Shown: positions 29,479 through 60,337, numbered from the stretch's first letter. The stretch is 62,393 nucleotides of DNA from Candidatus Roizmanbacteria bacterium RIFCSPHIGHO2_02_FULL_38_11 (GCA_001788015.1 MFZO01000044.1:1-62393), one strand, 5' to 3'. Translations and numbers: made by a program. The notes: generated by a model not told the origin, from the sequence alone.

Positions 29479-29489
29479 GAGGAGGTAAT

Positions 29490-29792: not shown

Positions 29793-29830
29793 AACAAAGT
29801 TCACTTCAGGCCAAACAATAAATTTATAAT

Positions 29831-30787
29831 ATGAAGAGTGAAACATCAAAAAAAATAATAAGTTACAGCGCTCCGGCAAAAGTTATTCTTTCAGGCGAGC
29901 ATGCTGTGGTGTACGGAAAACCTGCTTTAGTTTCGGCTTTGGATTTAAGATTGAAATTCGGTATTTGGGAAAATAAGAAAAATCTCAAAGATAAAAATAT
30001 ATTAATGATTATGCAGAAAGTTAAGGATAACCTTAAAAAACAAAAAATAAGTTTTAAAGAGAAGAAATTTGATTATAAAATTGATTCGAATATTCCGATT
30101 AAACAGAGACTTGGATCGTCAGCGGCTTTTTGCGTCGCTGTTGTAGCGGCTTTATTGGAATATTATGGAGGTAGAGAGTTTGATAAAGAAACAATAAACA
30201 ATATTGCTTATCAATGTGAGAAATACTTTCATATTAATGCTTCCGGTGTTGATGTGACGGCATCATGTTTTGGAGGACTTATCTTTTATCGAAAAGAATT
30301 TGAATTTTTGAAAAATATTTCTGCCTTAAATATTAAAATTCCAAAAAAAATAGAAGAGGGATTATTTTTGATTGATAGCGGTAATCCAGTAGAACCAACT
30401 GGAGAAATGGTTGACTTAGTTGGTAAAGCATACAACAATAAACCTGAATTTATTGAAGAAGTTCTGAATGATATTGAAAAAACAACAAAACGGTTAGTAG
30501 TATCGATTATTAAGGAAGATATTAATTTTTTTATTAAATCATTAGTCGACAATCAGGTATTGTTAGATATGTTGGGCGTTGTTTCTAAAAAGGCAAAAAA
30601 TTTGTTAAAAGATTTAGAACCATATGGATACGGAAAGGTTACGGGCGGCGGAGGAAAGAAAAGAGGATCAGGATACATGCTTTTTTATACAGGTAAGATA
30701 AAAGAGTTTGAAAATTATTGCAGTCAGAAAAATATTACTTATTTCAAATTTATACAGTCCTACGAAGGAGTAAAAAAAGAAACATGA
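29831..30787 (+). CDS. GHMP kinase, divergent mevalonate-kinase paralogue (candidate phosphomevalonate kinase)
   Basis: Motif I PAKVILSGEHAVVYG, motif II RLGSSAAF, atypical motif III KVTGGGGKKRGSGYM. Confidence 0.7.
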   Translation: MKSETSKKIISYSAPAKVILSGEHAVVYGKPALVSALDLRLKFGIWENKKNLKDKNILMIMQKVKDNLKKQKISFKEKKFDYKIDSNIPIKQRLGSSAAFCVAVVAALLEYYGGREFDKETINNIAYQCEKYFHINASGVDVTASCFGGLIFYRKEFEFLKNISALNIKIPKKIEEGLFLIDSGNPVEPTGEMVDLVGKAYNNKPEFIEEVLNDIEKTTKRLVVSIIKEDINFFIKSLVDNQVLLDMLGVVSKKAKNLLKDLEPYGYGKVTGGGGKKRGSGYMLFYTGKIKEFENYCSQKNITYFKFIQSYEGVKKET

Positions 30788-31698
30788 AGGTAAAAACGTC
30801 AGCTCCGGGAAAACTAATGCTTTTGGGAGAGCATGCAGTCGTTTATGGTTATCCATGCATTGTAACAGCGGTTGATAAAAGATTGTATGTTGAAGCAGAA
30901 GTTATTAATAAAAAAGAAGATGAAATAGTTACTCCGCAGGTTAAGGAAAGCCGTTTTGTCTTAGAAACACTTGCCCACTTCAGGGATAAATTCAGGGTTA
31001 ACAAACACATTAAGATAACTACCCAAGGAGATTTTTCCCACAATGTAGGATTAGGTTCTTCGTCGGCTGTAACTGTTGCAACATTTTCTGCTTTAAGCTT
31101 GTTATTTAATTTTCCATTATCCAAAAAGGAAATATTTGATTTAAGCTATAAAGTTACGTTGAAAATTCAAGGTGTTGGTTCGGGATTCGATATTGCGGCG
31201 GCAACTTTTGGCGGGACTTTGTATTTTGTAAAAGGAGGAAAAACTATAGAACCATTGGAGATTGATTCTCTACCGATAGTTGTTGGTTATTCAGGAATTA
31301 AGGCAGACACTCCTTATTATGTAAGAAAAGTGGCTGAAGCATTCAAGGATAGACAAAGTGAGATGAAAGAAATATTTAATAAAATTACCGAGTTAGTTAA
31401 TAAGGCAAAAAAGAGTCTCCTTGAAAAAGATTATCCCACGCTTGGAAGACTTATGACCAAAGATCACAAGCTTTTGCAAAATCTTGGAGTAAGTATTCCT
31501 CAACTTGATGAGATGGTAGAAGCTGCTTTGGATGCCGGGGCTTATGGAGCAAAGTTGTCAGGCGCAGGTGGAGGAGATTGTATGATTGCACTGGTTTCGG
31601 AAGATAAAAGAAAAGCAGTTGAAAAAGCTATACAAAAGGCAGGAGGGGAAATTATAAATGTTAAAAACAATGAAGAAGGAGTGAGGATAGAAAAGTGA
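30784..31698 (+). CDS. mvk: mevalonate kinase
   Basis: APGKLMLLGEHAVVYG, GLGSSSAV, KLSGAGGGDC. I chose the ATG at 30784, which overlaps the upstream stop as ATGA, over the 30718 start. Confidence 0.8.
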   Translation: MKVKTSAPGKLMLLGEHAVVYGYPCIVTAVDKRLYVEAEVINKKEDEIVTPQVKESRFVLETLAHFRDKFRVNKHIKITTQGDFSHNVGLGSSSAVTVATFSALSLLFNFPLSKKEIFDLSYKVTLKIQGVGSGFDIAAATFGGTLYFVKGGKTIEPLEIDSLPIVVGYSGIKADTPYYVRKVAEAFKDRQSEMKEIFNKITELVNKAKKSLLEKDYPTLGRLMTKDHKLLQNLGVSIPQLDEMVEAALDAGAYGAKLSGAGGGDCMIALVSEDKRKAVEKAIQKAGGEIINVKNNEEGVRIEK

Positions 31699-31699
31699 T

Positions 31700-32677
31700 A
31701 TGAAAGCCACCGCCATTGGTCCGTCGAATATTGCTTTTATTAAGTATTGGGGCAAAAAGGATGAGAATTTAAGATTGCCAGAGAATGGCAGTATTTCGAT
31801 GAATTTGAGTGATTTAACTACAACTACTACAGTTGAGTTTTTACAAAACCTTAGAGAAGATAGCGTAATAATTGATGGAAAAGCCGAGAAGAAAAAAATA
31901 GAAAGAGTCAGTAAACAGCTTGATAGAGTAAGAAAGATTGCTAAATTTCCATATAAAGCAAAAGTTGTTTCTCAAAATAATTTTCCAAGTGGAACTGGTT
32001 TATCTTCTTCGGCTTCAGGCCTTGCAGCTTTGACATTGGCGGCTTCAAAATCAGCAGGTTTAAATCTTTCAGAAAAAGAATTATCCATTTTAGCGCGTCA
32101 GGGATCAGGATCAGCCTGTCGTTCAGTACCCGATGGATTTGTTGAGTGGCTAGAGGGCAATACAAGCGAAACTTCGTACGCCTATTCTCTGTACCCAGAA
32201 AATTATTGGGATATTCTCGATATAGTCGTGGTTGTATCTCACGATAAAAAGGATATATCTTCGACAGGAGGACAAAAAATAGTTGCAACCAGTTCATTCT
32301 ACAAAGTTAGACTTTCAAATATTAATAAAAAAATAGAATTATGTAAAAAACTTCTAAGCGAGAAAAATTTTCCTGAATTTGGAAAATTGATTGAAGCTGA
32401 AGCGCTGGAGCTACATGCGATTATGCTAACTTCTTCACCATCACTGATTTATTGGTTGCCTGGGACGATTAAAATTATGAAGTTAGTTAAAAAATGGAGA
32501 AGCGAAGGATTGGCGGTCTATTTTACGGTTAATACAGGACAAGATGTTCATCTTATTATTGAAGGAAAAAATAAGGAAATTCTATTAGAAAAGTTGCAAA
32601 AAGTAAAAGAAATAAAGAAAGTAATCGTGAATACCCCAGCATTAGGAGCAAGATTAATCAATAAGCACTTGTTTTAA
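31700..32677 (+). CDS. mvaD: (di)phosphomevalonate decarboxylase
   Basis: NIAFIKYWGKKD, GTGLSSSASG, GSGSACRS; starts 2 nt after the mvk stop. Confidence 0.87.
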   Translation: MKATAIGPSNIAFIKYWGKKDENLRLPENGSISMNLSDLTTTTTVEFLQNLREDSVIIDGKAEKKKIERVSKQLDRVRKIAKFPYKAKVVSQNNFPSGTGLSSSASGLAALTLAASKSAGLNLSEKELSILARQGSGSACRSVPDGFVEWLEGNTSETSYAYSLYPENYWDILDIVVVVSHDKKDISSTGGQKIVATSSFYKVRLSNINKKIELCKKLLSEKNFPEFGKLIEAEALELHAIMLTSSPSLIYWLPGTIKIMKLVKKWRSEGLAVYFTVNTGQDVHLIIEGKNKEILLEKLQKVKEIKKVIVNTPALGARLINKHLF

Positions 32678-32678
32678 A

Positions 32679-33020
32679 TTATGGTCCGATTTTTGGCAGA
32701 TTGATCTGCCACCCGCCGCCTGTATCTGTAAAAATATGAAGGACTTGAGTAGCGATGACGTTAAAAAGAGCTAATGCGAAAATAACAATAAAAATACCGA
32801 TGACAGCGTTGGTTATTTTTTGCTGGGCTTTTACTATTCTTTCCTTTTCACCGCCGGAAATTATCCAATCAAAGGCCCCGGATAGCATGTAGATCAGTAC
32901 AGCTATGCCGGCAATGATTATGAAAATATTTATAGCTCCTCCGATAAAAGCTCCGGCGTCTGTCGGAACTCCGGTAGGGGGCGCAATTGTACCGAATATA
33001 TCGGCTTGAGCTAGGTTCAT
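32679..33020 (-). CDS. small two-helix pilin-like protein (TrbC/VirB2-like T4SS-pilin pattern)
   Basis: TM1, then SGGEKERIVKAQQKITNAV, then TM2; 113 aa. Confidence 0.5.
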   Translation of the reverse strand: MNLAQADIFGTIAPPTGVPTDAGAFIGGAINIFIIIAGIAVLIYMLSGAFDWIISGGEKERIVKAQQKITNAVIGIFIVIFALALFNVIATQVLHIFTDTGGGWQINLPKIGP

Positions 33021-33023: not shown

Positions 33024-33323
33024 TTAAAACGGTGAGGAAATACCAAATATAACTGTAATTAATTTTACAATAACAAAAGCGATAATAACAACAATCAAAC
33101 CCAATATAGCAAAGGTCATTGTTTTTTGGGCTTTTGCCACATTTTCTGGACTGTCGCCTGCGATAATCCGAAGATAACCTCCGTATAAAAGCATAACCAG
33201 AAGAATAAAGGCTGCTCCAATTATAAGCAAAGGCAAGAATATATTCATAAGATCAGCAACTTTTGCAAATTTTGCTAAAGGATTAACGGTCGGATCACTA
33301 AAATCAATAGCGTAGACGTTCAT
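33024..33323 (-). CDS. small two-helix pilin-like protein (TrbC/VirB2-like T4SS-pilin pattern)
   Basis: TM1, then AGDSPENVAKAQKTMTFAI, then TM2; 99 aa; 3 nt from its paralogue. Confidence 0.5.
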   Translation of the reverse strand: MNVYAIDFSDPTVNPLAKFAKVADLMNIFLPLLIIGAAFILLVMLLYGGYLRIIAGDSPENVAKAQKTMTFAILGLIVVIIAFVIVKLITVIFGISSPF

Positions 33324-33386: not shown

Positions 33387-34097
33387 ATGAAACATGAAAC
33401 ATTAAAAAGAAATATTCCAAAACATGTTGCAATAATTTTGGACGGAAATAGAAGGTGGGCAAGAGAAAGACGATTACCTACTTTAGAAGGACACAGAAGA
33501 GGATTAAATGCTGTTATCGAGATTAGTAAAAAAGCAAGACAGATGGGGATAAAAATTTTAACGGTTTGGGTTTTTTCCACGGAAAATTGGGACCGAAGCA
33601 AAGCAGAAGTAAGTTATATAATGAAGCTTGGCGAAAGAGCAGTTGCTAATTATTTAAAAGAGGCTTTAAAAGAACAGGTTAGAATTATACACATTGGAAG
33701 AAAAGACAGAATTCCAAATAATCTTCGAGATAAGCTTAGAGAAGCAGAAGAAAAAACAAAAAAATTTAGCAAATATTTTTTTGTAATAGCATTAGACTTC
33801 GGCGGGCGTGACGATATAATCCGAGCAATCAAAAAAATCCGTAATCCGCAATCCGTAATAAAAAATTTGGATGAAATTAGTTTTAGTCAGTTCTTAGATA
33901 CGAAAAAACTACCTCAATCAGACATAGACTTAGTTATTAGAACCGGAGGAGAAATACGCACTTCGGGTTTTATGATCTGGCAAGCCGCGTACGCCGAATA
34001 TATTTTCGTCAAAAAATATATGCCCGATTTTACACCTGAAGATTTTGAGGAGTGTATTAAAGAATATTCACAAAGACAGAGAAGATTTGGCAGATAA
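33387..34097 (+). CDS. uppS: isoprenyl transferase / undecaprenyl diphosphate synthase
   Basis: HVAIILDGNRRWA and IRTGGEIRTSGFMIWQAAYAEYIF motifs. Confidence 0.93.
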   Translation: MKHETLKRNIPKHVAIILDGNRRWARERRLPTLEGHRRGLNAVIEISKKARQMGIKILTVWVFSTENWDRSKAEVSYIMKLGERAVANYLKEALKEQVRIIHIGRKDRIPNNLRDKLREAEEKTKKFSKYFFVIALDFGGRDDIIRAIKKIRNPQSVIKNLDEISFSQFLDTKKLPQSDIDLVIRTGGEIRTSGFMIWQAAYAEYIFVKKYMPDFTPEDFEECIKEYSQRQRRFGR

Positions 34098-46207: not shown

Positions 46208-46342
46208 ATGAAGAGAACCTGGCAGCCAAAAAAGAAAAAAAGACTACGAAAACATGGCTTTTTAAAAAGGATGGCCACGCATGATGGAAGAAGAGTACTA
46301 AAAAGGAGAAGAATAAAACGAAGAAAACGTTTAACAGTATAA
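46208..46342 (+). CDS. rpmH: 50S ribosomal protein L34
   Basis: [44 protein letters not shown] (44 aa), translated by hand; below the ORF-track cut-off. Confidence 0.9.
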
Positions 46343-46343
46343 T

Positions 46344-47162
46344 ATGTTAACTCCCAATTTTTTCAGCACAACTTTTGTATTTCCTATACTCAATTTGCTA
46401 GTGTTTTTTTATAAAATCTTTCTTTTTATTAAAATTCCAGGAGCATTTGGTTTGGCAATTGTTGCTTTGACTGTTGTCATTCGCTTAATTCTTCACCCCT
46501 TTTTCAAACAACAAATTGAGACGAGCAAAAAAATGCAGGATTTGAAACCCCATCTTGACAGATTGTCACAGAAACACAAAAATGATAAGAAAAGAATACA
46601 GGAGGAACAGATGAAACTTTATCAACAGGCAGGGATAAATCCTGCCTCAGGTTGTCTTTTTATGATTATTCAGATACCTGTTTTTATAGCTCTGTATAAT
46701 ACGCTTTCTTTATTTTTACTTAATGGTAATGCGACAAAAATAATTTCTCAAATAAATAAAGTACTTTATCATCCTATGCTAAAAATCCAGACGATAGATC
46801 CCTGGTTTTTCGGATTTAATCTGGCAGTGTCTCCCGCAAAATCAGGTCAATGGTATTATTATGCATTGCCGATATTAACTGCTTTTCTGCAATATCTGCA
46901 GACACAAGCAATGACGCCGTCTTCTCCCCAAACCTCCGAGGTTAAAGAGGAGCGAGGCGACGGGAAAACCTCGGAGGTTAATAAGGATGGCAAAAAAAAT
47001 GGCGGAGATGATTTTCAAAAAGCTATGAATACACAGATGAAGTTCATATTTCCGCTTATGATCGGTTGGTTTTCCTATACTTTACCTGTTGGCTTGTCAC
47101 TCTATTGGAACATATTCTCAATTTTTAGTATAATGCAATATAGAAGAACAAATTCCAAATAA
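46344..47162 (+). CDS. yidC: membrane protein insertase YidC (short Oxa1-type)
   Basis: GCLFMIIQIPVFIALY and LPVGLSLYWNIFSIFSIMQ motifs; starts 1 nt after the rpmH stop. Confidence 0.87.
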   Translation: MLTPNFFSTTFVFPILNLLVFFYKIFLFIKIPGAFGLAIVALTVVIRLILHPFFKQQIETSKKMQDLKPHLDRLSQKHKNDKKRIQEEQMKLYQQAGINPASGCLFMIIQIPVFIALYNTLSLFLLNGNATKIISQINKVLYHPMLKIQTIDPWFFGFNLAVSPAKSGQWYYYALPILTAFLQYLQTQAMTPSSPQTSEVKEERGDGKTSEVNKDGKKNGGDDFQKAMNTQMKFIFPLMIGWFSYTLPVGLSLYWNIFSIFSIMQYRRTNSK

Positions 47163-47951: not shown

Positions 47952-47997
47952 AGGTGATATTATTTGACTTTAGCCTATAGCAATAGTATACTTTATT

Positions 47998-48216
47998 ATG
48001 TATTCCCAAAAATACCGAAATTTACTAAAAAAGGCAGTTTTCTTTCTACCAATTTTACTTATTCTTCCTTTTGTCTTTGCTTTTGATACGCTTATCTACT
48101 TTATCACGCGCCCTGCTTGTCTCAGCTGTGGAAATCTGATAGAGTTTCTGAAGACAGCATCATTAAGCGTAGCTTTAATTGGCGGAGTTTTTGGTTATAA
48201 GTTGAAGAAAAAATGA
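47998..48216 (+). CDS. small 2-TM protein (72 aa)
   Basis: Two hydrophobic helices; stop TGA at 48214-48216 lies 1 nt before the ATG of the 1163-aa gene. Confidence 0.4.
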   Translation: MYSQKYRNLLKKAVFFLPILLILPFVFAFDTLIYFITRPACLSCGNLIEFLKTASLSVALIGGVFGYKLKKK

Positions 48217-48217
48217 T

Positions 48218-51200
48218 ATGGCAGATCCAGTTGAAACATTGGGTCAAAGAACAATCGCAGACACGATTATAGAAGCAAGAGACAGCATTCATAAAGAGTT
48301 GCCGTCTGCTCAAAGGAATCCACTGGAAATGAATATTTTGATAACTCGATTGAGACAGGACTTGAAAGACGCCGAGTCACCCGCTAAAGAATTTATTGCT
48401 AATGAAAAAAAAGTAAGTATTGGCCAAGCTCTGCCGGTTAAGCAGGCAGAAGGTGACATGGCGCTTCATAAAGTTATTAGAGCGGTTGAGGCGGCTAAAC
48501 AGGGGGTGCTGGTTTCCAAAACAACCCAAGGACAGGAACTTTTAGTAAAACTTTCCGAAAAAAGTTATACATCTTATTCTGTTGCCTCTGCGATAGAAGC
48601 AAATCTAGCCGATTACTTGATAGGTAACAAAAATATAACTATTAGCACTCAACCGGGAACTAAATCAGATTTTCAGCGCGCATTTGAAAATCTTAATTCT
48701 GATAATGTTACTGCAGCGACATTGATAGGTCAATCAATAATCGAGATGGCAAGGGAAGGAAAGATTGCGGGTCTCACAGAGGATGCGGCAAGAGAAAAAT
48801 TTGAAGTGAAGGAAGAAGAAAAAAGAAGAGAACCGAGAACCCAGGCTGATAGAGGATTAATAGAAGCTGGTTCAGGGCCTGAGAATGAAATGAGAGATTT
48901 CATAGAGCAGTATCCAAAAAAAGACCACGCATTAATTAATGCCTTATATAATCCCAGAGAATTTGAAAGTTTTGTTCAAAGAGAATATTACGAGAAGATC
49001 AAAAAAGAGTTTGAAAATAAGGGATTCACGGGAGACAAGCTTGAGGAGGAGATAGGTAAAGAACTTTCGGAAAGGCTAAGACATGATATAGCTTTATTGG
49101 TTGGTAGGCTTTATCAAAATGTTGATGAATCACATCCGTCTCAATTTTGGGAAGAAGCAGAAAAAAGAGGCGGATTTTGGAGAAATGCCGAGGTCTTTAG
49201 CGAAAATTTGTTGAGACAGATAAGGAATTTGAGAAATGCTGAATTTTCTGTAGATTTTCAATCTAAAACGATGTTCTTCATTAAAGATCAGGAAACTTAT
49301 TATGAAAGAGTTCCGGCGATACCAAGATTTGACAATGAAGCAGTAAGCGAAGAGACAAGAAAATTTGTCAAGCCATTGAGAAAAGATAGAAGAGTTGATA
49401 TTGGTACTTTTTTGCATTCCGTAGAAACGTTGGCTCATTCACACGAGATTCAAACCAGAAAGTTTCTGCACAACGGCCGGGCTTTAATCTATAACCCTAC
49501 TGATCCAGAGAAAGGTTATTACTCTAGTCTATCAGGATATGCAGATAAATTTCTCCCGGCCACTTCGGTAGACGTCCTTTTCACTCTTCCCGACGCCGAG
49601 GAAATTATGGCCGCATCACAGTTAGAAGATAAATTATTCGAAGCAGACTTTGCCAGAACCAACTGGGTTCATCAGCCGGGGTCTGCCGGTTTGGGGCCGC
49701 TGGGAATGACAGAACTAGATGAAGAATCTTTGGAGCGCTTGATGATGATTAATCCTAAGTTGAAGGACGACGAGTGGAGAGCTAAAAGGGCTCTCATTAT
49801 GGGAATAGGTGATAATTATACGATATCTTTAAGACATTTAGAGACAGGGGCTTATGCCGATCCTTCTATGAATCCGGAAGAAGGAATGGGGCCAACTTAC
49901 GGTTCATACGGTCCAAGAGACTCTATCCCCTACATGGCATTTAATATGCTGGCCCATGATAATATGAGATGGCAAGCGGAGAGGCTCTGGTTGGGCAATC
50001 TTTTATTTTTGCCTGTGAGAGGTAAAGATTTGGCAGGACACTTTGGATTTATGAAGTTCTGGGATCATCGAACGCTTTTGGACGAGATGAAGAAAAGCAT
50101 AGACTCTTACATAAAAGGCAGGCCGCCGGAGGATGTTGAAAAAGGAGTTGTAAGATGGGTTGATATCATTAATCCCGGAAGGGTTGGGAGTATATACACA
50201 CGCGGCGGATGGAGAGAATTTTACGCTTATGAGACTCATTTAGTGAGACCCTCTGAAGTAGAATTAAAACAAGGAATAAGGTTTAATATTACAGAGTCTT
50301 GGAAGGCATTGGAAAATGTAGGGGTAGAGTGCCTAAAAGATTTTGTCGGAAGAATAAGCAAAAAGCCTACGTCTTTAGACAAAACTTTTTTTACAGACGA
50401 TGGCAGGGACAATAGAAGAGGATTAATGGAACATATTTATAAGAAATATTTTTCTTCAAATGCTACCGCTGATGAGATTGAAGCTAAGTTTAAGCAATTG
50501 GAAAAGAATCCAGATCAACTTGAATCAGCTTACAAAACATTTTTTTATCAGGCTTTTGCTCGGGCCATGAAACAAAGAATTCCAACAAAGTTTCTTAGGG
50601 TTGAGCGAAATAGATTTGTTTCAGGTAGAAAAAGAGCCTACGAAGAAGTCAGGAAAAACAGCGGTTTGTCTGATGGGGATTTTGCCAGGGCAGTAAACGA
50701 TGTTATCACGGCCGAAGTTTATCTAAGGGGAGAAACGAGCAAAATTTTAAAAGATCAATATAAAGCTGGCAAGAAGTTAAACGAAATAAAAAATATCGAT
50801 TACACTTTGACAGAAGAAAAACTGCGCTTTTATTTAGGTGAGAAATTTGGTCTAAAAGGAACGGATGCAGAAAGAATAGAGAAAGCAGTTAAAACCTTTA
50901 AAACAATTAGTGCATTTGCCGATGAGAGCTATCTAGACGGATTTGCAAAAAAATACGCAGCAGATATGCACGAACACGGATTCCCTTTTGCTATAGCTGT
51001 TGAGGAATTAGATCGTAGCCTTCTTGCTCATAGAGCAGCCGGCGAAAGAACAATAGCTAGAGCTTTGGGTGACACGTCTATGGTAGAGATGCAGGTTGCC
51101 AAGACGATCTCAGGTTACTTTAAAACCATTCAAGAAGTGGCGGTTAATGGAAAGAAAGATATTAGCGAAATTGTTAACTCTATCAATACAGTCAAGACAA

Positions 51201-51709
51201 CAATAGAGATGCTTATTGGTAAAGATGCTGCCCATAGGATTGCACATCATATGGCCGCATTAACCATTTCTTATTTTAAAAAGGATACGGTTTCGGATAA
51301 TATTTTTACCAGGTGGTTTGTTATGAATAAGCCGCATTCTCTGGCTGCCGAGTTTGCCGGAACCTGGAGAGGAGTGTGGGAATGGCAGCCAGACGAGATA
51401 ATGACTTTTTGCAATGAGCTGGAAAAAAGGAGTATTTTACCTAAAGAGCCATTTGAAAAACAAAAAGCCCCAGAATGGCTGAAGAAACCTTCAGCAGAGT
51501 TTAACTTTTTGGGCCAAAAAATTATAATCGGCGGAAAAAGAAAGCCTGATTATGTATTTCACGGCAAGACGCTACGAGAGGAGTTTGGAGGCACCTGGAA
51601 ACATATGATAAACCATGTTCTCAATAAATATTTGCCGTTATTTGCTCTTTTTATACTTTTTCAATATTTACGAAAGGCATATAGTGAGTCGGCAGGACAG
51701 AAAAAATAA
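48218..51709 (+). CDS. giant orphan protein (1163 aa), soluble with a single C-terminal TM helix (tail-anchored)
   Basis: 3.5-kb uninterrupted ORF; no signal peptide; no Walker or other motif found by eye; LPLFALFILFQYL about 15 aa from the C-terminus. Confidence 0.6.
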   Translation: MADPVETLGQRTIADTIIEARDSIHKELPSAQRNPLEMNILITRLRQDLKDAESPAKEFIANEKKVSIGQALPVKQAEGDMALHKVIRAVEAAKQGVLVSKTTQGQELLVKLSEKSYTSYSVASAIEANLADYLIGNKNITISTQPGTKSDFQRAFENLNSDNVTAATLIGQSIIEMAREGKIAGLTEDAAREKFEVKEEEKRREPRTQADRGLIEAGSGPENEMRDFIEQYPKKDHALINALYNPREFESFVQREYYEKIKKEFENKGFTGDKLEEEIGKELSERLRHDIALLVGRLYQNVDESHPSQFWEEAEKRGGFWRNAEVFSENLLRQIRNLRNAEFSVDFQSKTMFFIKDQETYYERVPAIPRFDNEAVSEETRKFVKPLRKDRRVDIGTFLHSVETLAHSHEIQTRKFLHNGRALIYNPTDPEKGYYSSLSGYADKFLPATSVDVLFTLPDAEEIMAASQLEDKLFEADFARTNWVHQPGSAGLGPLGMTELDEESLERLMMINPKLKDDEWRAKRALIMGIGDNYTISLRHLETGAYADPSMNPEEGMGPTYGSYGPRDSIPYMAFNMLAHDNMRWQAERLWLGNLLFLPVRGKDLAGHFGFMKFWDHRTLLDEMKKSIDSYIKGRPPEDVEKGVVRWVDIINPGRVGSIYTRGGWREFYAYETHLVRPSEVELKQGIRFNITESWKALENVGVECLKDFVGRISKKPTSLDKTFFTDDGRDNRRGLMEHIYKKYFSSNATADEIEAKFKQLEKNPDQLESAYKTFFYQAFARAMKQRIPTKFLRVERNRFVSGRKRAYEEVRKNSGLSDGDFARAVNDVITAEVYLRGETSKILKDQYKAGKKLNEIKNIDYTLTEEKLRFYLGEKFGLKGTDAERIEKAVKTFKTISAFADESYLDGFAKKYAADMHEHGFPFAIAVEELDRSLLAHRAAGERTIARALGDTSMVEMQVAKTISGYFKTIQEVAVNGKKDISEIVNSINTVKTTIEMLIGKDAAHRIAHHMAALTISYFKKDTVSDNIFTRWFVMNKPHSLAAEFAGTWRGVWEWQPDEIMTFCNELEKRSILPKEPFEKQKAPEWLKKPSAEFNFLGQKIIIGGKRKPDYVFHGKTLREEFGGTWKHMINHVLNKYLPLFALFILFQYLRKAYSESAGQKK

Positions 51710-51751
51710 ATCTCGCTTGAGTTTTTCGATTTTTTTAGGTGTAATGAAAAT

Positions 51752-53083
51752 ATGAAGAAAATTTTTATTTCTTGCTTTTTTATATCTTTATTTTTTCTGT
51801 TTCAGCTTAAACCAGTTGTTTTAGCCGGTCCCCAATGTAATGCTTTAGGAGGAACCTGTAAGCTAAATTGTGATACAAACACAGAAGAACCTAAAGCTAC
51901 TCAAGACTCTCAGGATTGTCCGCTCAGCGGGCTAGGTGGAAATACCCGAGAAACATGTTGTGTTCCTCTTGCAGTACCTCGTGATGGAAGACAATGTAGA
52001 GCTTCAGGATGGACTTGTGAAAACTATTGTACGGGAGCCCCCAAAGGTGAACAAGATTGTCCAAGGGTAAGCGGTGGATTGGGGGGACCAATCCAACAAG
52101 TTTGTTGTGATCTTTCTGCCCCCTCTCCTACGCCTCCAACTGGAGCTCAATGTAAAGCTCAAGGATGGACTTGTGAAACCTATTGTTCAGGAGCGCCTAA
52201 AGGGAACCAAGATTGTCCAAAAGTCAACACAGGATATGGACTGGCTCAACAAACTTGTTGTGATCTTGCTGCACCATCTCCCACCCCTCCAACAGGTGCA
52301 CAATGTAGCGCATTAGGAGGGACTTGTGTATTAAATTGCCTAGGAGATCCTAAGGGAACCCAAGACTGTCCACCGACCAACACAGGATATGGGGGAGAGC
52401 AACCACAAACTTGTTGCGTCGCTACTACTCCTGCTAATCCTTTAGACTTTGAAATTCCAGGTGTGGGGTGCGGAGTGCCAAACGATACGACAGGAGCAAA
52501 TAAATGTTGTCAGACTACTAAACCAAACTGCAATTTTGGGGTAATGGAAGTACTTCAGGTTATACCTGGAATTGGTGATTGGATAAGAGGAGCTAAAGCT
52601 CAATGCGAAAGTCTAGGTGAATTTCAAGAAAAATACGGCAAGCTAAAATGTTTATACGGTCAGGAAAAGTATGATGCTGCTGGTAATTGTGGTTGCGTTA
52701 CAGAAGCCACAAGCAGTGCAATTCCTGAAATTAGAGAGATGTGTAAAAAATATCTTGGGACGTCTAACCCCAAAGAGTTTGAGGCATGTGATAAATGTGC
52801 CGCTACTGGTTTTTATACAGGCATAGGCTGTATACCGCTTACGCTAGGGGGTTTTACCAGCTTTGTATTCAGTTTTGGCATTGGTTTAGGCGGAATCATT
52901 GCTCTACTTTGTATTATTTACTCGGCGTTCGTCATGCAGACCTCAGGTGGTAATCCTGAAAGGATCAAAAAAGCCCAAGAGAACTTGACTTCGTGCATCA
53001 TGGGATTAATGCTGATAATCTTTGCCATTTTTATATTGAGGGTAATAGGTGTAAATATTTTAAAGATACATGGGTTTGGATAA
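51752..53083 (+). CDS. secreted Cys-rich repeat protein fused to a pilin-like two-helix C-terminus
   Basis: Signal peptide (..VVLA/GP); 4 six-Cys repeats; a further Cys-rich middle region; C-terminus TM - TSGGNPERIKKAQENL - TM, like the small pilin-like ORFs. Confidence 0.65.
   Translation: MKKIFISCFFISLFFLFQLKPVVLAGPQCNALGGTCKLNCDTNTEEPKATQDSQDCPLSGLGGNTRETCCVPLAVPRDGRQCRASGWTCENYCTGAPKGEQDCPRVSGGLGGPIQQVCCDLSAPSPTPPTGAQCKAQGWTCETYCSGAPKGNQDCPKVNTGYGLAQQTCCDLAAPSPTPPTGAQCSALGGTCVLNCLGDPKGTQDCPPTNTGYGGEQPQTCCVATTPANPLDFEIPGVGCGVPNDTTGANKCCQTTKPNCNFGVMEVLQVIPGIGDWIRGAKAQCESLGEFQEKYGKLKCLYGQEKYDAAGNCGCVTEATSSAIPEIREMCKKYLGTSNPKEFEACDKCAATGFYTGIGCIPLTLGGFTSFVFSFGIGLGGIIALLCIIYSAFVMQTSGGNPERIKKAQENLTSCIMGLMLIIFAIFILRVIGVNILKIHGFG
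51836..52417 (+). repeat. four tandem coding repeats of about 150 nt (six-Cys module)
   Basis: Repeats 2 and 3 are clearly similar at the DNA level (caatgta(g/a)agct..ggatggacttgtgaaa..tattgt..gattgtcc..tgttgtgatct..); spacing C-x6-C-x3-C-x9/15-C-x12-14-CC. Confidence 0.85.
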
Positions 53084-53085
53084 AG

Positions 53086-54762
53086 TTATTGTGTTGATTT
53101 TTTCCCTCCTGGCAATGTTAATCCTATTTTTTCTCCAGCCGCTTGCAATGCCCCTAAACCTAATCTCATACTTCCCAGCTGACCAAGTAAACCAAGTCCG
53201 CCGCCTGCGGCAGTTCCAGCCCCGGCAAAGAATGTTCCAAGTCCTGCCGTATCCAATAGTCCAGGTTTAGGTACAAATAGTTGTTTTACGGCTTTTACTA
53301 AATCCGGCGTTAAAAATAAAATAGCCATTGCTACGATTAGACTAAAGTCGCTAGGATCGATACTTCCCATAAAGGGAAACTGGATAAGAGATTCAGCAGT
53401 TGTAGGCCCAGAGTATATAGCGTTTGTGATAAGATTTACCAACATAAATATTGCAACCATGGTGGGGAAGACTATAAGTTCGGAAATAAGATTTTTTAAC
53501 CAGCTCGAAAAAGCCGACTGGCCCGGGACTGCTTCTAAAAGCAAATAAAGTGGGGAAATGATTATGGTCAAAAGTATTTTTATATAGGCAGATATTATAA
53601 GAAATATCAGCCTAAAAAAGATCAGTAGAATCGTAAAAAAAATTAGCAGACCAAGAAGAAAGGGAACAACAACTGTACCTCCTATGACTATACCAATAAT
53701 TAAACCGACAATATTAAGTGGCGCTTTTATTAGTTCGCCTAAACCTTCCCACTGGAATCCAAATCCGAGAAGGGTTGCTATACCTTCAAGATGGAAGGCG
53801 TCAATGATATTTTTAAAGAAAGTTTTTTGCGTTAGCCAGGGATAAACAAAAACTACTCCGATAATACTTCCAATAATACGTACGACTGCGCCAATTTGAG
53901 GCACTATATTAAGCAAAGCGTTGGGAAGGTCAAATAGTACTCTGAAAATATTGTTACCCGTACCCGCGGTGAAAGTGAAGAATAAATCATGAGGAGCTGC
54001 CCGGAGATAAACGCGCTGTTTATCGGCTATCTGGGCTGGATTTAAGCCTCCTGCTGGACCAATAATCGAAACTATAAGAATTATTGCTATGTACATAAGA
54101 TCGATCAGGAATCCGGCAATCGCAAAGGAAAAAGTAATTAAAATAAGAGAAATCACGATTTTAGGCAGAGAATTTTCCACAGAAATAACAGTTTGAGGAT
54201 TGAGCTTCATACTGAACATGATCATGAAACCGATTGTGATCAATACCAAAACAATCACTAGATAGGCGACGTTTCTGAAAGCATTCCATATTTTGGCAAA
54301 GGGCTTAATAGCGCCAAAACCTATGCCCTCGGCGGCGTAAGTTTTTGGAATAAAACCGGCATCTTGCAGTCCGTTGTAGGCCCACCAGACGCCAGAGGCA
54401 GGAGGATTAGTATAGGGAAGAATAATCAGTTTGCTTAAAAAACCGAAAGTACTTTTATTAAAATTCTTATCCCCGTCTGACGGATTGTTCGTGCAGGCTT
54501 CACCGACCAAGCCGCACATTGTTAATCGATACAAAGCAATGGTTAGTTTTCCCTCTTTAGTTTTTTTGAGTTTTGGATCGTTTAATACTTTATAGATCTC
54601 CACCCGATTTTTTTTGACGGGATCTTGCGTGATTTTCGGTTTATCTTTGTTGATGAAATGAATAAAGAGAGAGATGATAATAAAGTAAACTACAATTACT
54701 AGAAAAATCTTTTTTCCTATATTGATTAGTTTCTTTAACCCGGCAAGGTAAAATGGAAGCAT
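53086..54762 (-). CDS. polytopic membrane protein (558 aa), VirB6/TrbL-like topology, Gly-rich C-tail
   Basis: N-terminal anchor, about 100-aa loop, at least 8 TM helices, C-terminal GLGTFFAGAGTAAGGGLGLLGQLG. The VirB6 analogy rests on topology and context only. Confidence 0.45.
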   Translation of the reverse strand: MLPFYLAGLKKLINIGKKIFLVIVVYFIIISLFIHFINKDKPKITQDPVKKNRVEIYKVLNDPKLKKTKEGKLTIALYRLTMCGLVGEACTNNPSDGDKNFNKSTFGFLSKLIILPYTNPPASGVWWAYNGLQDAGFIPKTYAAEGIGFGAIKPFAKIWNAFRNVAYLVIVLVLITIGFMIMFSMKLNPQTVISVENSLPKIVISLILITFSFAIAGFLIDLMYIAIILIVSIIGPAGGLNPAQIADKQRVYLRAAPHDLFFTFTAGTGNNIFRVLFDLPNALLNIVPQIGAVVRIIGSIIGVVFVYPWLTQKTFFKNIIDAFHLEGIATLLGFGFQWEGLGELIKAPLNIVGLIIGIVIGGTVVVPFLLGLLIFFTILLIFFRLIFLIISAYIKILLTIIISPLYLLLEAVPGQSAFSSWLKNLISELIVFPTMVAIFMLVNLITNAIYSGPTTAESLIQFPFMGSIDPSDFSLIVAMAILFLTPDLVKAVKQLFVPKPGLLDTAGLGTFFAGAGTAAGGGLGLLGQLGSMRLGLGALQAAGEKIGLTLPGGKKSTQ

Positions 54763-54817
54763 AAATTCATTTAAGCAGAAAAATCAAGTAGTGTCAATTA
54801 TTCAGCTTAATCCAAAG

Positions 54818-55243
54818 TTATTTTATTACCCAAACAACTTCATACTGATTGGTATTGATTCCGATATTTTTCAGCTGTGTCAACACCTCGTTTTTAATTG
54901 CATCTTGTTGGCCAGACAGATAAATATCTGCGATAAATTTTCTTTCATAGATGTCATAATAGACAAAATATTTTTGAGTTCTAAGAGGAAGTTTATCGTA
55001 CCAAGGATATGTATCATATATCTCTTTGGTCCACCTGCCAAATTCTTTGTCAGACTCGAGCTGTTCTTTTTCGTCCTGGGTGAGTGTCGGTCCTAAATCT
55101 TGGATCGTAGGGATGATTATAGTTGGTATAGGTGTTATAGGTGGTTCATTAGGTGGTTTTGAGCGGGACAAAAAGTAATAAACGCTTGCTACAACAACCA
55201 AAAACAGGCTAAGAATCAGGATATAGATATATACTTTTTTCAT
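54818..55243 (-). CDS. membrane-anchored hypothetical protein (141 aa)
   Basis: The [18 protein letters not shown] start at 55243 overlaps the upstream stop as ATGA; Pro-rich linker followed by a globular domain. Confidence 0.5.
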   Translation of the reverse strand: MKKVYIYILILSLFLVVVASVYYFLSRSKPPNEPPITPIPTIIIPTIQDLGPTLTQDEKEQLESDKEFGRWTKEIYDTYPWYDKLPLRTQKYFVYYDIYERKFIADIYLSGQQDAIKNEVLTQLKNIGINTNQYEVVWVIK

Positions 55244-56109
55244 AATGATGGACAACCAAATCCCCTTAAAGAATCGTTAGTAAACGGCGTTCCCTGTATA
55301 TTCCCACTGTAAACGGGATATCTGGATATTTTTCTGGTGCTATTGGCATCGTATGTTTCTATATAGCCATTATAGCTTGAATCAAGGTTAACAGTCTTGA
55401 GGACTGCCGTGTGATTTTTATTCGTTACATGAACACCGGGAGTATATTGGAAGAAAGTCGCACAGCCTGGTTTAACCGTATTTAAAGCCTGTTGACGTTC
55501 TCCAGCTGAGGCAAGTTGATAAGTCGGAGGATTGGCGAAGTAATCTATGAATTTTACGCTGTAGGGAATATAGTTGTAGCCAGACGTCGTCATAAAAAAT
55601 TGTTGCATATTTTTGGTGGCCAGATGTGCACGGGTCAATCCGGTAAGCCCGGCAAGGTTATAAGCATTAATTACAAGGTAAGTACACCAATAAAGGTTGG
55701 ACGTACTTGTCGCAGGGCTGTAAAAAGCTGTGTATGATCCGTTGGAAGGCGGGTCAGTCAGTCGATTAAAATACCAGGAAGGCGGCCAGATAATATCTTC
55801 TCCCTCAAGTTTTTCACTGATGGCGATTGTATTCGTGAGGATATCTCCCAATTTGCCCGCAGGAATCGTAGGAAAAGGTTCGGATGTTGTTTGAGGTGGT
55901 GGTCCAGAGGGATTTGGACTGATAGGAAGGGGTGGTTGCGAAGCGGGATTAAAACTAAAGAATATTTTAAGAAGCTCTTGCAGAAAAAAAAGCGGATTTG
56001 AATAAGTTGTTTGAGGCGGGTTTTGGGCTGTAACGGGCGGCGGAAGAATAATAAATGAAAGAATTAAAATTAAAACTGTGGTGTTGACAATCAATAAAAA
56101 TTTCTTCAT
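55240..56109 (-). CDS. secreted protein with possible papain-fold (CHAP/NlpC-P60-like) hydrolase domain
   Basis: Signal peptide, Pro-rich linker, candidate nucleophile in [16 protein letters not shown] and His in NKNHTAVL. The catalytic assignment is unverified. Confidence 0.45.
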
Positions 56110-56122
56110 AATAATATTTATT

Positions 56123-59100
56123 ATGGCTTTATTAGATTTTATTAAAAAACCAAAACAAAAAGCAAGCGCAGTTCCTCAAGGCGCAGTTCAAAACAATACA
56201 ACTACTCAAACCCACGTAGTTGAGACGACCCAGACGACTCAATCCACTGGGCCACAAACGTATTCTGGCATCGGTGCTCCTCCTCAGCATCATGTTGAAA
56301 GTTCGCAAACGACGGTAGCGAAAACTACAGCTGCGACTCCAGGTGCCCCAACTGCTTCGGCAAATTTGTCCAGCGAGGAAAAAAAACGAGAGGAGATTGA
56401 CCTTATGACACACCTGACCCAGAGATCCAACCGAGTATTTCTCTCCGCTCAAAACAAAGCGAGGGAATTGAAATTAGACTTTGTCGACAGTGAGCATTTA
56501 CTACATGGGCTTTTGTCAGATAGCGAAATCTACAATCTTTTCATCGAGTTTAAGATTCACCCCCAACTTATAGAGGAAGAATTAAAAAAGATTTACAAAA
56601 ACGGAGCAAGCCAGAAGATGCCTCAGCTATCACCCCGAGTCAAACGTATTCTAGGTCTGTCCCTCACAGTTGCCAGGAAGCTTCGTTTTGAGTTTATATC
56701 GCCGGAACATATTCTCTTGGCTCTATATGAAGAAGGAGAAGGTGCAGGAGCAAAGATATTGACTAAAATGGGACTTAAAAAACAAGACTTAAACAAGAAA
56801 ATCATCGGCAAAAAAGAAGGGCTTGAAAAACAGGATAAAGAAGCGGATACAAAAAAGAACACAGTTGATCGCTACACAATCGACTTAACGGCAAAAGCCG
56901 CGCAAGGGCTTTTGGATCCCGTTGTTGAGAGATCAGATGTTATTGAACGAGTCATACATATTCTTTCCAGAAGAACAAAAAATAACCCAGCTTTAGTCGG
57001 AGAAGCCGGCGTTGGTAAGACGGCTGTCGTTGAAGGTCTGGCTCAGAAAATTGTTACAAAGGGCGTACCGGAATCACTCCTCGATAAAAGAGTCTTACAG
57101 CTCGACTTGATGAGTATAATAGCCGGAGCTTCTCATAGAGGTGAGTTTGAAGAAAGAATGAAAGAATTGATTGAACAGGTACAGGCGAGTAAAGGACAGA
57201 TAATTCTCTTTATTGACGAGATTCATAATATTGTGGGCGCAGGTGCGTCGGGTGAAAATGCTCTTGACGCTTCCAATTTCCTTAAACCGGCTTTAGCCCG
57301 AGGCGAACTGCAGCTTATTGGTGCGACCACGCTTACAGAATATCGAAAATACATAGAAAGAGATCCGGCTTTAGAGCGAAGATTTCAACCTGTTTTGGTT
57401 CAAGAGCCGACGATCGAACAAGCTATAAAAATGCTTAAAGCGATAAAGGATAAATATGAAGCGTTTCACCGCGTAAAGATTCCTGATGATGTGGTCGAAG
57501 CAGCGGTAAAATTCTCAAAGAGGTACGTAGGAGATCGGTTTTTACCCGATAAGGCAGTTGATCTTATTGACGAAGCAGCCTCGGCGGTTCGCTTACCGCT
57601 CATATCTCTTCCCGAAGTAATCAAATCTATTGAGACGCGGATAGCTGAATTAAATCAAGAGCTTCAGGAAGGGGAGAAACTGGGTGATAGAGTTAAGGTG
57701 CGGATTCTTCGATCTAAAATCGATGAGATAGAATCCACTCTAAAAGAGAAAAGGGGAGAATACGATATGAGAAAAGCTCAAACGACTTCAGCCGTTAGCG
57801 TTGATATTATAAAAGATATCGTTTCACGCTGGACGGGTATCCCAATCTCAAAAATCACCGAGTCAGAGCTTGAGCGTTTGGCACAGCTTGAGAAAATCAT
57901 GCATCAACGACTCATTGACCAGAATATAGCTGTGACTTCGGTAGCCGCAGCTGTAAGGCGAGGAAGAGCAGGATTAAAATCTACGCAAAGACCGATTGGC
58001 AGTTTTGTCTTTTTAGGTCCAACCGGTGTTGGAAAAACAGAGCTTGCAAAAACTTTAGCCGAAGTTTTATTTGGCCAGGAAGAAGCAATGATACGATTTG
58101 ACATGACAGAATATATGGAGAGGCATGAAGTGGCGAAGCTTCTTGGCGCGCCTCCCGGATATGTTGGATATGAAGAGGGAGGAAAACTGACAGAGGTAGT
58201 AAGAAGAAAGCCTTATTCGGTGGTTCTTTTTGACGAAGTAGAAAAAGCCCATCCGGATATTTTCAATATTCTTCTACAGATTCTTGACGATGGAAGGCTG
58301 ACTGATAATAAAGGTCATGTTATTTCGTTTAAAAACACAGTAGTCATCTGCACGTCAAATATTGGTACGCAGATGATTCAAGATGAGCTTTTAAAGAGTG
58401 GGAAAATAGAGATAGAAGAGCCGCCATTTTTGTCCACCTACACATTCTCACCAAGAGGTAGAGAAATATTGACGATTGGCACGAAGTATTTTGAAAGGGA
58501 AAAAGCAGTTGACAGTTGGAAGGAGGGAGTGCTTTTAGATTATTTTGCAGGCCAAGAAATAAAGCAGGATCAGTCAAAGGTTGACCAGCCTCTAACCGTA
58601 GAATCTTCGACCAAAGGTCGATCCACCGCTGGTGGAGACTTTCCCGTTCAGGGTTTTGCTACCCACACAATTTCTTTTAGAGGTGAAGAGCTTATAACAA
58701 AAGGTAATACGGTGTTTGTAAGAACTTCAACAACTGCAAAAATTTGGAAAACCACCACATTAATAGATTATTTTAAGGACGGAATTGTTGTTAATGCTCT
58801 TCCTGATGCACCAGAAGAGCAGCTTCCCACCGCAAGATTAAAGACTCACGCCTTTACGCCGGACGAGAGAGAAGTAGTGACATATAAAGACCGTTATTGG
58901 GTAAGAAAGGAAGGAATGAACGATTGGCAGACTGGTCATTTGAAGGATTATTTTACCGGAGCAGAAATCCAAGAGGCAGATCTTCAGAAAGCAACTAAAC
59001 AGGATCTAACTCCCCCTAAGGGGAGTCAAAAAGCCGCTAAGCAGGAGCAAAATGGTGTAAAAAGCGATGTCAAAAAAACCAATAAATTCTTTCCTACAGC

Positions 59101-60013
59101 CTATTGGGATATCCATACTTTCTCACCCTCAGGTAAAGAAATAATAATCTTAGGAGATACTGCTTGGTTTAGGAATGAAAGAAAAAATATATGGCAAACC
59201 CAATCGCTTAATGAATATTTTGGCAAAGATTTTCCGCTTGAAAAAGAACTTGAGGAGAAAAGAAAGGTTGATGAAGAAATTGATAAAAAGAAATACGATC
59301 TTATAAAAAGTAAAGTCACGGCAGAACTCCGTAAATTCTTTAGACCTGAACTTCTCAATAGATTCGATGAAGTTATCATCTTTGAACCTCTCAAGTTCAC
59401 TCACATGATAAAGATAGTTCAATTGCAGCTTAAGGGCTTGGCAAAGTTGTTAGAAGATCAAGATATAGGATTTATCTATACAGATTCGGCCGTAAAAGAG
59501 ATAGTGAGGGAAGGATTTGATCCTATATATGGGGCGAGACCGTTAAGGAGAGCGATTCAAAAGGTTATTGAAAATCCCATCTCCACGCTTATCATTGAAA
59601 AAAAAGTTAAAGCAGGAAATCAGATACAGGTCGATTTTGACGGGGAGAGCTTTATCTTTAATATAGAAAAAGTGGAGTTAGTGCCAGAAGAGATGCTAAA
59701 AAAGCGGACAATAAAGAACTTCTTATGCGAAGCTTGTGGCAATCATTTTATGACTTCAGTCGTGAAAAATTCTACGGTCATCTGCAGCCGATGTGCCTCA
59801 ACCAAAGTCCAAGAAGTGATAGAGTCACCTAAGGTTATACCTCTGGACGAAAAATCTTCTACAACCGATAAGGATGGAAAGCCCTCCAACGCTTCCGCTT
59901 CGGAAGGTGAAGAAGATAAGAATAAGTTGTCTAACGATGGAAAGTTAAGCGGGGACAAAAACCTTGACGGAAGACAAAAATCGCAGACAAATTTCCCGGC
60001 AACCCATGCATAA
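56123..60013 (+). CDS. ClpC/ClpB-type double AAA+ protein with N-terminal T/Q-rich extension, ~300-aa insertion in NBD2 and C-terminal zinc ribbon
   Basis: Two Clp_N repeats; NBD1 [15 protein letters not shown] / ILFIDEIH; short M-domain; NBD2 [12 protein letters not shown] / [13 protein letters not shown] / ICTSN / [11 protein letters not shown] / GARPLRR. Alternative in-frame start at 56405 (GGAG upstream). Confidence 0.85.
58421..59233 (+). repeat. four degenerate coding repeats of about 45-50 aa inside NBD2 of the AAA+ gene
   Basis: [40 protein letters not shown] / [42 protein letters not shown] / [40 protein letters not shown] / [40 protein letters not shown]. Confidence 0.8.
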
Positions 60014-60016
60014 TAA

Positions 60017-60337
60017 ATGGATAATAGATATTTAGCACAGCAAATCTGTATTGGTGGACAATGCGTGACTGGGGTTCTTGACCCTAAGATTCAAACTTTG
60101 GGAGACTTAGTCAATAGAGTCATACAGTTTCTTATTCCTCTTGCAGCTGTAATCCTTTTGGTGGTTTTCATCTGGGGCGGGTATGATTATATGATGTCTC
60201 AAGGAAGCCCAGAAAAAGTAAAATCTGCTCAGGCAAAGATTACGACTGGAATTATTGGTTTGATTCTTCTTCTTATCTCCTTTGTGTTGGTGAAGCTGAT
60301 CAGTTCAATTTTTGGTTTGGGAGGAGGGATAATTTGA
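60017..60337 (+). CDS. small two-helix pilin-like protein (TrbC/VirB2-like T4SS-pilin pattern)
   Basis: TM1, then SQGSPEKVKSAQAKITTGI, then TM2; ATG lies 3 nt after the AAA+ gene stop. Confidence 0.5.
   Translation: MDNRYLAQQICIGGQCVTGVLDPKIQTLGDLVNRVIQFLIPLAAVILLVVFIWGGYDYMMSQGSPEKVKSAQAKITTGIIGLILLLISFVLVKLISSIFGLGGGII

Follow-up and report, generated by a model that had tools for sequence, protein, structure and literature searches.

A conserved gene cluster in Roizmanbacteria as a candidate envelope module of the Patescibacteria type IV secretion system

What kind of system is encoded by a compact set of pilin, membrane and wall-hydrolase genes that lies among housekeeping genes with no secretion ATPase beside it? 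The question is raised by positions 47998-60337 of a 62,393-nucleotide (nt) stretch from RIFCSPHIGHO2_02_FULL_38_11, a Candidatus Roizmanbacteria bacterium (GCA_001788015.1, MFZO01000044.1:1-62393), here called the window, of which about 48 kb lie upstream of the cluster. An earlier note, made from the sequence alone, had proposed a self-contained machine for the display or extraction of disulfide-rich, pilin-anchored proteins, driven or quality-controlled by an AAA+ protein; our results partly support that interpretation. The genes for a 72-amino-acid (aa) protein, a giant protein, a pilin fusion, a polytopic protein, a bitopic protein, a hydrolase and a small pilin form a core that is conserved as a unit in Roizmanbacteria. 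We hold the chances to be even that this core is a lineage-specific envelope (membrane and pilus) module of the clade's Patescibacteria type IV secretion system (T4SS), split from the VirB4/TrsD ATPase; within that reading, the sequence evidence identifies the pilins and the wall hydrolase, and we infer that the polytopic protein is the platform, that a pilus is formed and that the module depends on VirB4. Eight open reading frames (ORFs) make up the cluster in the ORF listing of the window:

47998-48216, plus strand: 72-aa protein with two hydrophobic helices (ORF listing, hydropathy)
48218-51709, plus strand: 1163-aa giant all-helical protein (ORF listing, family hidden Markov model (HMM))
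51752-53083, plus strand: 443-aa secreted pilin fusion (PF18895, 31.5 bits)
53086-54762, minus strand: 558-aa polytopic membrane protein with a Gly-rich tail (hydropathy, AlphaFold2 (AF2) model, family profile)
54818-55243, minus strand: 141-aa bitopic protein from its ATG start, 145 aa from an upstream TTG (family in 62 loci)
55240-56109, minus strand: 289-aa secreted or anchored CHAP-like hydrolase candidate (Cys/His pair, CHAP matches of relatives)
56123-60013, plus strand: 1296-aa AAA+ protein of the ClpC/ClpB family (Clp_N, two AAA+ modules)
60017-60337, plus strand: 106-aa VirB2-type pilin (PF18895, 32.7 bits; NF045849, 41.8 bits)

The genes are closely packed. A single nucleotide separates the stop of the 72-aa gene from the start of the 1163-aa gene, 2 nt lie between the convergent 443-aa and 558-aa genes (junction 53083/53086), and an ATGA overlap (55240-55243) joins the 141-aa and 289-aa genes. 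The divergent starts of the hydrolase (56109) and AAA+ (56123) genes are 13 nt apart, and the 106-aa pilin gene begins 3 nt past the AAA+ stop. The best promoter-like site of the region (56084-56112) is directly upstream of the AAA+ gene and the second-best (47964-47992) is upstream of the 72-aa gene. Since full-length orthologues occur in dozens of species, all of these ORFs can be accepted as genuine genes. The ORFs and spacings named in the earlier note were all recovered, although its nine genes come to eight, the number that it itself describes; its topologies agree with hydropathy, the tail anchor of the giant protein excepted. Both flanks are housekeeping genes, with an aminoacyl-tRNA synthetase (aaRS), rpmH, yidC and jag/KhpB upstream and pyrH, recF and tRNA-Ser downstream. 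The G+C content of the cluster region is 0.39-0.42, compared with about 0.32-0.37 for most of the remaining window.

Conservation of the unit was analysed in 87 loci (given L numbers here) from Roizmanbacteria and Microgenomates. Gene order is nearly constant over these loci: DUF2298, aaRS, (rpmH), yidC, jag, (small transmembrane (TM) protein), giant protein and pilin fusion; then, on the opposite strand, polytopic protein, bitopic protein and hydrolase; and finally AAA+, (small ORF) and pilin, followed by pyrH and recF. In at least 60 species the cluster lies at this one chromosomal site, with jag on one side and pyrH on the other. The neighbourhood conservation on which the earlier note had staked its proposal is thus present in many related genomes, and the housekeeping flanks are equally syntenic; because they are as conserved as the cluster, synteny alone cannot prove a functional unit. 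The exceptions to the usual order are informative. The giant protein, pilin fusion and polytopic genes are inverted as a single block in L040, L044, L061 and L064. At least eight species have no AAA+ gene next to the cluster: in L069-L071, L083 and L048 it is missing and the small pilin gene still adjoins the hydrolase operon, while L038, L045 and L084 have other genes in place of the AAA+ side. The inversion of the trio as a block, together with the absence of the AAA+ gene where the pilin gene is kept, indicates that the core behaves as a module, with the AAA+ gene as a frequent but dispensable neighbour. Many GTDB records that carry the cluster (L010, L015, L018, L020 and others) are titled "uncultured Gammaproteobacteria bacterium" (TPA binchicken, SRP co-assemblies) and look mislabelled.

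Both pilin-like proteins score above the cut-off of 26.6 bits for PF18895 (T4SS_pilin), the 443-aa protein with 31.5 bits and the 106-aa protein with 32.7 bits, and for the latter the NCBIfam model NF045849, "pilin-like conjugal transfer protein", likewise lies above its cut-off (41.8 bits versus 40). Hydropathy predicts a C-terminal two-helix hairpin in each. Their N-termini (MDNRYLAQQICIGG... and MKKIFISCFF...) show no class III prepilin motif (G|FxxxE), and no window protein matched the Pfam families of type II secretion systems and type IV pili (PilB ATPase, PilC platform, PilD peptidase). By sequence, then, they are VirB2-type pilins of a T4SS and not type IV (PilA-type) pilins, which bears out the earlier description of them as pilin-like. 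Orthologues of the 106-aa pilin are about 55% identical, and this protein is probably the major pilus or membrane subunit.

The 443-aa protein consists of a signal peptide or anchor, six-Cys units at residues 29-222, a 12-Cys domain at about 227-365 and a VirB2-type hairpin at 377-432. The four repeated six-Cys units reported in the earlier note were confirmed, both as a sequence pattern (C-x6-C-x3-C-x9-15-C-x12-14-CC at residues 29-70, 82-119, 134-170 and 185-222) and by Tandem Repeats Finder, which gave a period of 153 nt. Orthologues share only residues 234-443, that is, the 12-Cys domain and the hairpin; the four N-terminal units are lineage-specific, and other species bear different Cys-rich extensions.

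The 289-aa protein had been described as secreted and papain-fold-like. It has an N-terminal signal or anchor by hydropathy and no Pfam match of its own, and an exhaustive search yielded 160 clusters of its family. Neither C142 nor H233 varies across 57 sequences of the family, seven of which match CHAP (PF05257); in other relatives the domain is fused to SLT, Amidase_3, Peptidase_S11, Beta-lactamase2 or Glucosaminidase. The invariant pair, the CHAP matches and the fusions to wall enzymes uphold that description and mark the protein as a candidate peptidoglycan hydrolase of the papain-fold, CHAP-like Cys/His type. In orthologous loci the same slot is filled by Peptidase_C39_2, CHAP, SLT or Peptidase_M15_4, above or at the Pfam cut-offs. 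As the slot is refilled by unrelated wall hydrolases, it is the slot for a wall hydrolase, not the sequence, that is conserved. The VirB1-type peptidoglycan hydrolase of a T4SS thus has its counterpart here in the CHAP-like family and the other slot enzymes. A relation of the 289-aa protein itself to C39_2 was not accepted (hhalign probability 59% over just 19 columns).

The 558-aa protein, the best-conserved component of the cluster, has 7-8 TM segments and a Gly-rich tail; an extracytoplasmic loop of it is conserved and contains two invariant Cys. Its 745 homologues are about 50% identical, share 44 invariant positions and come from at least 231 GTDB species, all of them Roizmanbacteria or Microgenomates. 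The earlier note called this protein VirB6-like. Its polytopic topology stands; its identity as a VirB6 is weakly indicated. The AF2 model (predicted local distance difference test (pLDDT) 81.8), compared with 350,000 PDB chains using Foldseek, placed R388 TrwI/VirB6 at ranks 1-3, 15, 17 and 26, with non-significant scores (E 0.9-7, top three 0.9-1.2; template modelling score 0.35-0.39; root-mean-square deviation 12-15 Å). TrbL was matched weakly by one of 68 family members (E 0.007). These indications are concordant but weak, and we treat a VirB6-like nature as a lead from model and sequence. The possibility that the pilin hairpin recurs as a repeat within this protein was rejected (blastp E 6e-4 in a tiny database, hhalign probability 0.9%).

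The giant protein was earlier regarded as a tail-anchored orphan. It is no orphan, its family HMM being positive in 72 of the 87 loci, and it belongs to a lineage-restricted family whose positional orthologues align over their full length with 23-40% identity. The protein is all-helical and has no signal peptide. The C-terminal hydrophobic stretch is real and conserved in the family; at 13-15 residues it falls below the TM threshold used, and a full TM anchor is not supported. Searches in Pfam, NCBIfam and PDB gave no match. The AF2 model, built from five sequences, was unusable (pLDDT 48.9), its Foldseek matches being generic helical repeats without meaning. A further homology search with a profile of the protein returned the same five proteins only. 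A divergent VirB4 was ruled out for this protein, as no Walker A or P-loop was found in seven orthologues and no Pfam, NCBIfam or PDB match was obtained.

The 72-aa protein, with two hydrophobic segments and homologues in 29 loci, and the 141-aa bitopic protein, with an N-terminal TM segment, a Pro/Thr linker and a C-terminal domain of about 80 aa (family in 62 loci), showed no relation in Pfam, NCBIfam or PDB. In size and topology they fit VirB3/PrgI-like and VirB8/PrgL-like proteins, respectively, with no profile relation. By this analogy the 72-aa protein, translationally coupled to the giant protein, may be a VirB3/PrgI-like partner. Big_5 and VirB8-like assignments of the 141-aa protein were discarded (Big_5 in just two of 39 members, no PDB relation).

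Is the AAA+ protein part of the system? Pfam identifies Clp_N, two AAA+ modules with Walker A and B motifs, AAA_lid_9 and ClpB_D2-small, and the M-domain is of the short type seen in ClpC, the two Walker A motifs being about 339 residues apart. Scores remain below the equivalog cut-offs (TIGR03346 ClpB, 924 versus 1232; TIGR02639 ClpA, 706 versus 993), and orthologues are 70-73% identical. On these profiles it is a double-ring member of the Hsp100 family but not an equivalog, probably the housekeeping Hsp100 chaperone of the clade, and probably co-transcribed with the small pilin gene. It has an N-terminal Q/T-rich extension of about 95 aa and, at the C-terminus, a zinc ribbon (CxxC...CxxC) with an acidic tail. 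The insertion and the zinc-ribbon motif pointed out in the earlier note are both real. The insertion comprises residues 762-1041 (window 58406-59245), 280 aa with four repeats of about 48 aa (consensus ...THAFSPKGKEIITIGDKVWERKSTAKDWKTGMLKDYF), and is located in D2, after sensor-1 (TSN) and before the arginine finger (FRPELLNR), the position at which ClpC and ClpA have their ClpP-docking loop. No IGF/VGF ClpP-docking tripeptide was found in this protein or in short orthologues, where the loop is K/E-rich. Of about 45 Roizmanbacteria orthologues, 19 have the insertion, which is thus confined to part of the clade. Pfam gave no match for it, and no further protein among about 6000 neighbouring ORFs contains it; its identification as a known domain or as one shared with cluster proteins was dropped. 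The protein thus resembles ClpC/ClpB in domain composition and short M-domain but differs in its sub-equivalog scores, missing tripeptide, insertion, Q/T extension and zinc ribbon. Given the absence of the gene beside the cluster in at least eight species, the restriction of the repeat domain to this one protein and the equal synteny of the flanks, the claim that it powers the system is not supported; it is the usual neighbour between the two module halves and at most a candidate component. In many relatives (for example L006:4796-5431(-) and L007:4741-5172(-)), an extra ORF of 210-230 aa lies between the AAA+ and small pilin genes and overlaps both; it is absent from the window and has no Pfam match.

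If the core belongs to a T4SS, where is the ATPase? In agreement with the earlier note, Pfam and a P-loop scan detected neither VirB4 nor VirD4 in the window. The only P-loop proteins there are BipA, ABC, AAA_14, the ClpC-like protein and RecF; none of the large ORFs matched VirB4-like Pfam families, and the same searches revealed no coupling protein (VirD4/TcpA) or relaxase. Contigs bearing the window all end about 300 nt past recF, and the sequence further downstream is seen in relatives only. There, the genes beyond recF encode an S24/LexA-like protein, a metallophosphatase, fusA, rpsG, rpsL, rpoC and rpoB. The earlier note had reasoned that canonical VirB4 or VirD4 genes just outside the window would make this an ordinary T4SS; the approximately ten genes beyond the cluster in relatives include neither. 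At the level of the genome, however, the notion of a novel system devoid of VirB4 fails: in the excerpt of Table S1 of PMC12102498, VirB4 is listed, away from the cluster, for 41 of 56 Roizmanbacteria genomes, and the same survey lists it for nine of 13 named cluster-bearing genomes. For the L059 genome, Table S3 of PMC12102498 enters CDS 130 as TrsD, CDS 131 as VirB4 and CDS 140 as a pilin; these could not be placed on the contig of the cluster and, judging from the number of genes, probably lie on a different one.

Patescibacteria T4SSs with arrays of VirB2-like pilins have already been published (PMC10633639, PMC12102498). The system of S. epibionticum (SEML1_0006-0019), which has pilins among its components, was shown to be essential (Wang et al. 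2023, PMC10633639). The survey by Quinonero-Coronel et al. 2025 (PMC12102498) describes these systems as MPF-FATA-like, with pilin arrays especially abundant in Microgenomatia, relaxases rare, and components often apart from virB4 and near origin-proximal genes such as rpmH; VirB6 is "scarce" in Microgenomatia, "suggesting extreme sequence divergence". The cluster resembles such loci in its multiple PF18895 pilins, in a wall hydrolase within the locus, in lacking a relaxase and coupling protein, in its monoderm host and in its chromosomal position near origin-proximal housekeeping genes; Microgenomatia, for which pilin arrays and a "missing" VirB6 are reported, match the situation in the clade of the cluster. 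It differs in having no VirB4, TrsD or PrgI in the locus, in the roughly 48 kb upstream or in about ten genes downstream, and in a polytopic protein that VirB6, TrbL and PrgH profiles do not recognise. The published component lists are also without the helical protein of about 1200 aa, the bitopic protein and the Cys-rich pilin fusion.

The membrane modules of Gram-positive T4SSs, such as PrgH/PrgI/PrgK/PrgL of pCF10 and ConG/ConD/CwlT/ConB of ICEBs1, consist of a polytopic VirB6-like protein, a small protein with two TM segments, a bitopic protein and a secreted hydrolase of CHAP/SLT type, a parts list to which the candidate proteins of the cluster may correspond; the CHAP and SLT families of the slot are those of the VirB1 analogues of the PrgK, TraG and CwlT type. 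No sequence or profile similarity was detected, however, for the polytopic, small and bitopic proteins of the cluster. To our knowledge, Gram-positive T4SSs lack VirB2 pilins and always have the VirB4 gene adjacent. VirB2/TrbC pilins are two-helix hairpins with a short polar loop, as are the hairpins of the cluster pilins, whereas classical VirB2 is without a large N-terminal cargo such as that of the 443-aa fusion. The R388 TrwI/VirB6 stalk (PDB 7O3V, 8RT9, 8RTD), the top, non-significant Foldseek neighbour of the 558-aa model, is half the size of that protein.

Combined, the parts suggest how an envelope module of this kind could work. The 558-aa protein would be a diverged VirB6-type assembly platform, missed in Microgenomatia by profile searches, and the 106-aa protein would be the principal subunit, in a pilus or in the membrane. 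Solved VirB2 pili have the N-terminus on their outer face, and the 443-aa pilin may likewise show its disulfide-rich N-terminal domains on the outside. The CHAP-like hydrolase would open the wall locally, as VirB1, PrgK and CwlT do; the giant helical protein could be a cytoplasmic, membrane-associated scaffold or a substrate; and energy would be supplied by the VirB4/TrsD ATPase encoded elsewhere.

How well does the assignment to a T4SS stand against its rivals? Several observations weigh against it. Neither the window nor about ten genes downstream of the cluster in relatives yielded VirB4, VirD4, TrsD or PrgI. Pfam, NCBIfam and PDB sequence and profile searches with the 558-aa protein gave no match, tblastn of it against 72,556 plasmids gave nothing useful, and its assignment as VirB6 is statistically unsupported. 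The giant and bitopic proteins have no T4SS relatives detectable by Pfam, PDB or Foldseek. All comparison genomes belong to one clade, with housekeeping flanks as syntenic as the cluster, and four of the 13 cluster-bearing genomes, all drafts, are entered without VirB4 in PMC12102498, so that the module might work without that ATPase. A first rival is a neighbourhood rather than a machine, that is, separately acting envelope genes held together by low rearrangement around rpmH-yidC-jag ... pyrH-recF, with PF18895 proteins as generic anchors for surface domains, a hydrolase of growth or division, a conserved membrane protein and a chaperone. Order is conserved to the same degree in DUF2298, aaRS, yidC and jag on one side and in pyrH, recF, S24, fusA, rpsG, rpsL, rpoC and rpoB on the other, the window has no secretion-specific ATPase, the hydrolase and bitopic slots vary, and further PF18895 genes sit among metabolic genes of the window. 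We nevertheless doubt this explanation, while regarding it as a real possibility: it does not account well for the tight coupling (1-nt gap, ATGA overlap, 3-nt gap), for the inversion of the giant, pilin fusion and polytopic genes as a block, for a slot that is always refilled by some wall hydrolase family, as is typical of trans-envelope machines, or for a combination of pilin and hydrolase that fits the published Patescibacteria T4SS loci. A different origin, as a remnant of an integrative and conjugative element with a monoderm-type T4SS, might be suggested by the small pilin, which passes an NCBIfam model built on pilin-like proteins of Mycoplasma elements, and by the elevated G+C content of the region. 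It is highly improbable and largely refuted by the constant jag-pyrH position, by the lack of any integrase, relaxase, VirB4, VirD4 or flanking repeats seen, by tblastn searches in which the polytopic protein and the pilin found nothing among the 72,556 plasmids, and by the rarity of relaxases in Patescibacteria (PMC12102498).

The self-contained, VirB4-independent display or extraction machine of the earlier note, with the AAA+ protein acting on disulfide-rich pilin-anchored proteins, is unlikely in our judgement. It keeps some life because the AAA+ gene is packed with a pilin gene, is divergent from the hydrolase operon and has a promoter-like site, and because some drafts are listed without VirB4. 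The gene is adjacent in most species, with 13-44 nt between its start codon and that of the hydrolase operon; the small pilin gene is within 3 nt of it or linked by overlaps; the strongest promoter-like site is immediately upstream of it; and its product lacks the ClpP-docking tripeptide and carries, in part of the clade, a four-repeat domain at that loop. Against this, the rest of the cluster persists without the AAA+ gene in the eight loci named above, the insertion is limited to a minority of orthologues and the repeat occurs in no other neighbouring protein, and the protein is otherwise an ordinary Hsp100 in its score with the ClpB model and in the identity among its orthologues. Moreover, VirB4, a known pilin dislocase, is present in most Roizmanbacteria of the excerpted survey table, and disulfide-rich domains fold extracellularly, beyond the reach of a cytoplasmic unfoldase. 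A variant in which a VirB4-independent filament or display structure is built from VirB2-type pilins, one of them with disulfide-knot cargo, on the 558-aa platform, with the co-transcribed AAA+ protein as a dedicated membrane-extraction motor bearing a zinc ribbon and, instead of the ClpP-docking loop, a four-repeat binding domain, and with the giant protein as an adaptor that links motor and membrane, seems to us unlikelier still. We therefore retain the envelope module of the Patescibacteria T4SS as the preferred reading.

The window holds a further pair of pilin genes outside the cluster:

32679-33020 and 33024-33323, minus strand: tandem VirB2-type pilins of 113 and 99 aa (family HMM, PF18895)

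They were recognised by the family HMM (E 1e-16 and 2e-14) and scored 23.8 and 35 bits with PF18895. The pair is wedged between mevalonate-pathway genes and uppS (33387-34097), distant from other T4SS-like genes; the mevalonate-type genes (27096-32677, plus strand) encode an HMG-CoA synthase-like protein, a thiolase, three GHMP kinases and a diphosphomevalonate decarboxylase. At the borders of the cluster, yidC starts 1 nt after the rpmH stop (46208-46344), with rnpA, the gene usually found between them, absent there, and the small pilin gene shares 33 nt at its 3' end with the 3' end of the oppositely oriented pyrH (60305-60337). Elsewhere, the window contains a lone 5S rRNA gene (17865-17981, plus strand; Rfam 78 bits), with no 16S or 23S rRNA detected in the 62 kb, and a 587-aa ORF (18796-20559, plus strand) with no Pfam match at E<0.01.

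A Patescibacteria T4SS with VirB2-like pilins was already known. The new element is a set of Roizmanbacteria partner proteins, strongly conserved and entirely without annotation, which includes a plausible answer to the "missing VirB6" of Microgenomatia, along with a giant companion protein, pilins that bear cargo and an Hsp100 whose ClpP-loop position is occupied by a repeat domain. The last is a minor oddity among AAA+ proteins. In the sole species tested, the Patescibacteria T4SS is essential; the cluster supplies conserved candidates for the absent membrane and pilus half, namely a platform, a bitopic protein, an interchangeable hydrolase, a major pilin and a pilin with Cys-rich cargo. If the preferred reading is true, hundreds of genomes could gain additional T4SS annotation, and the variable cargo of the pilins would be a candidate determinant of host contact.

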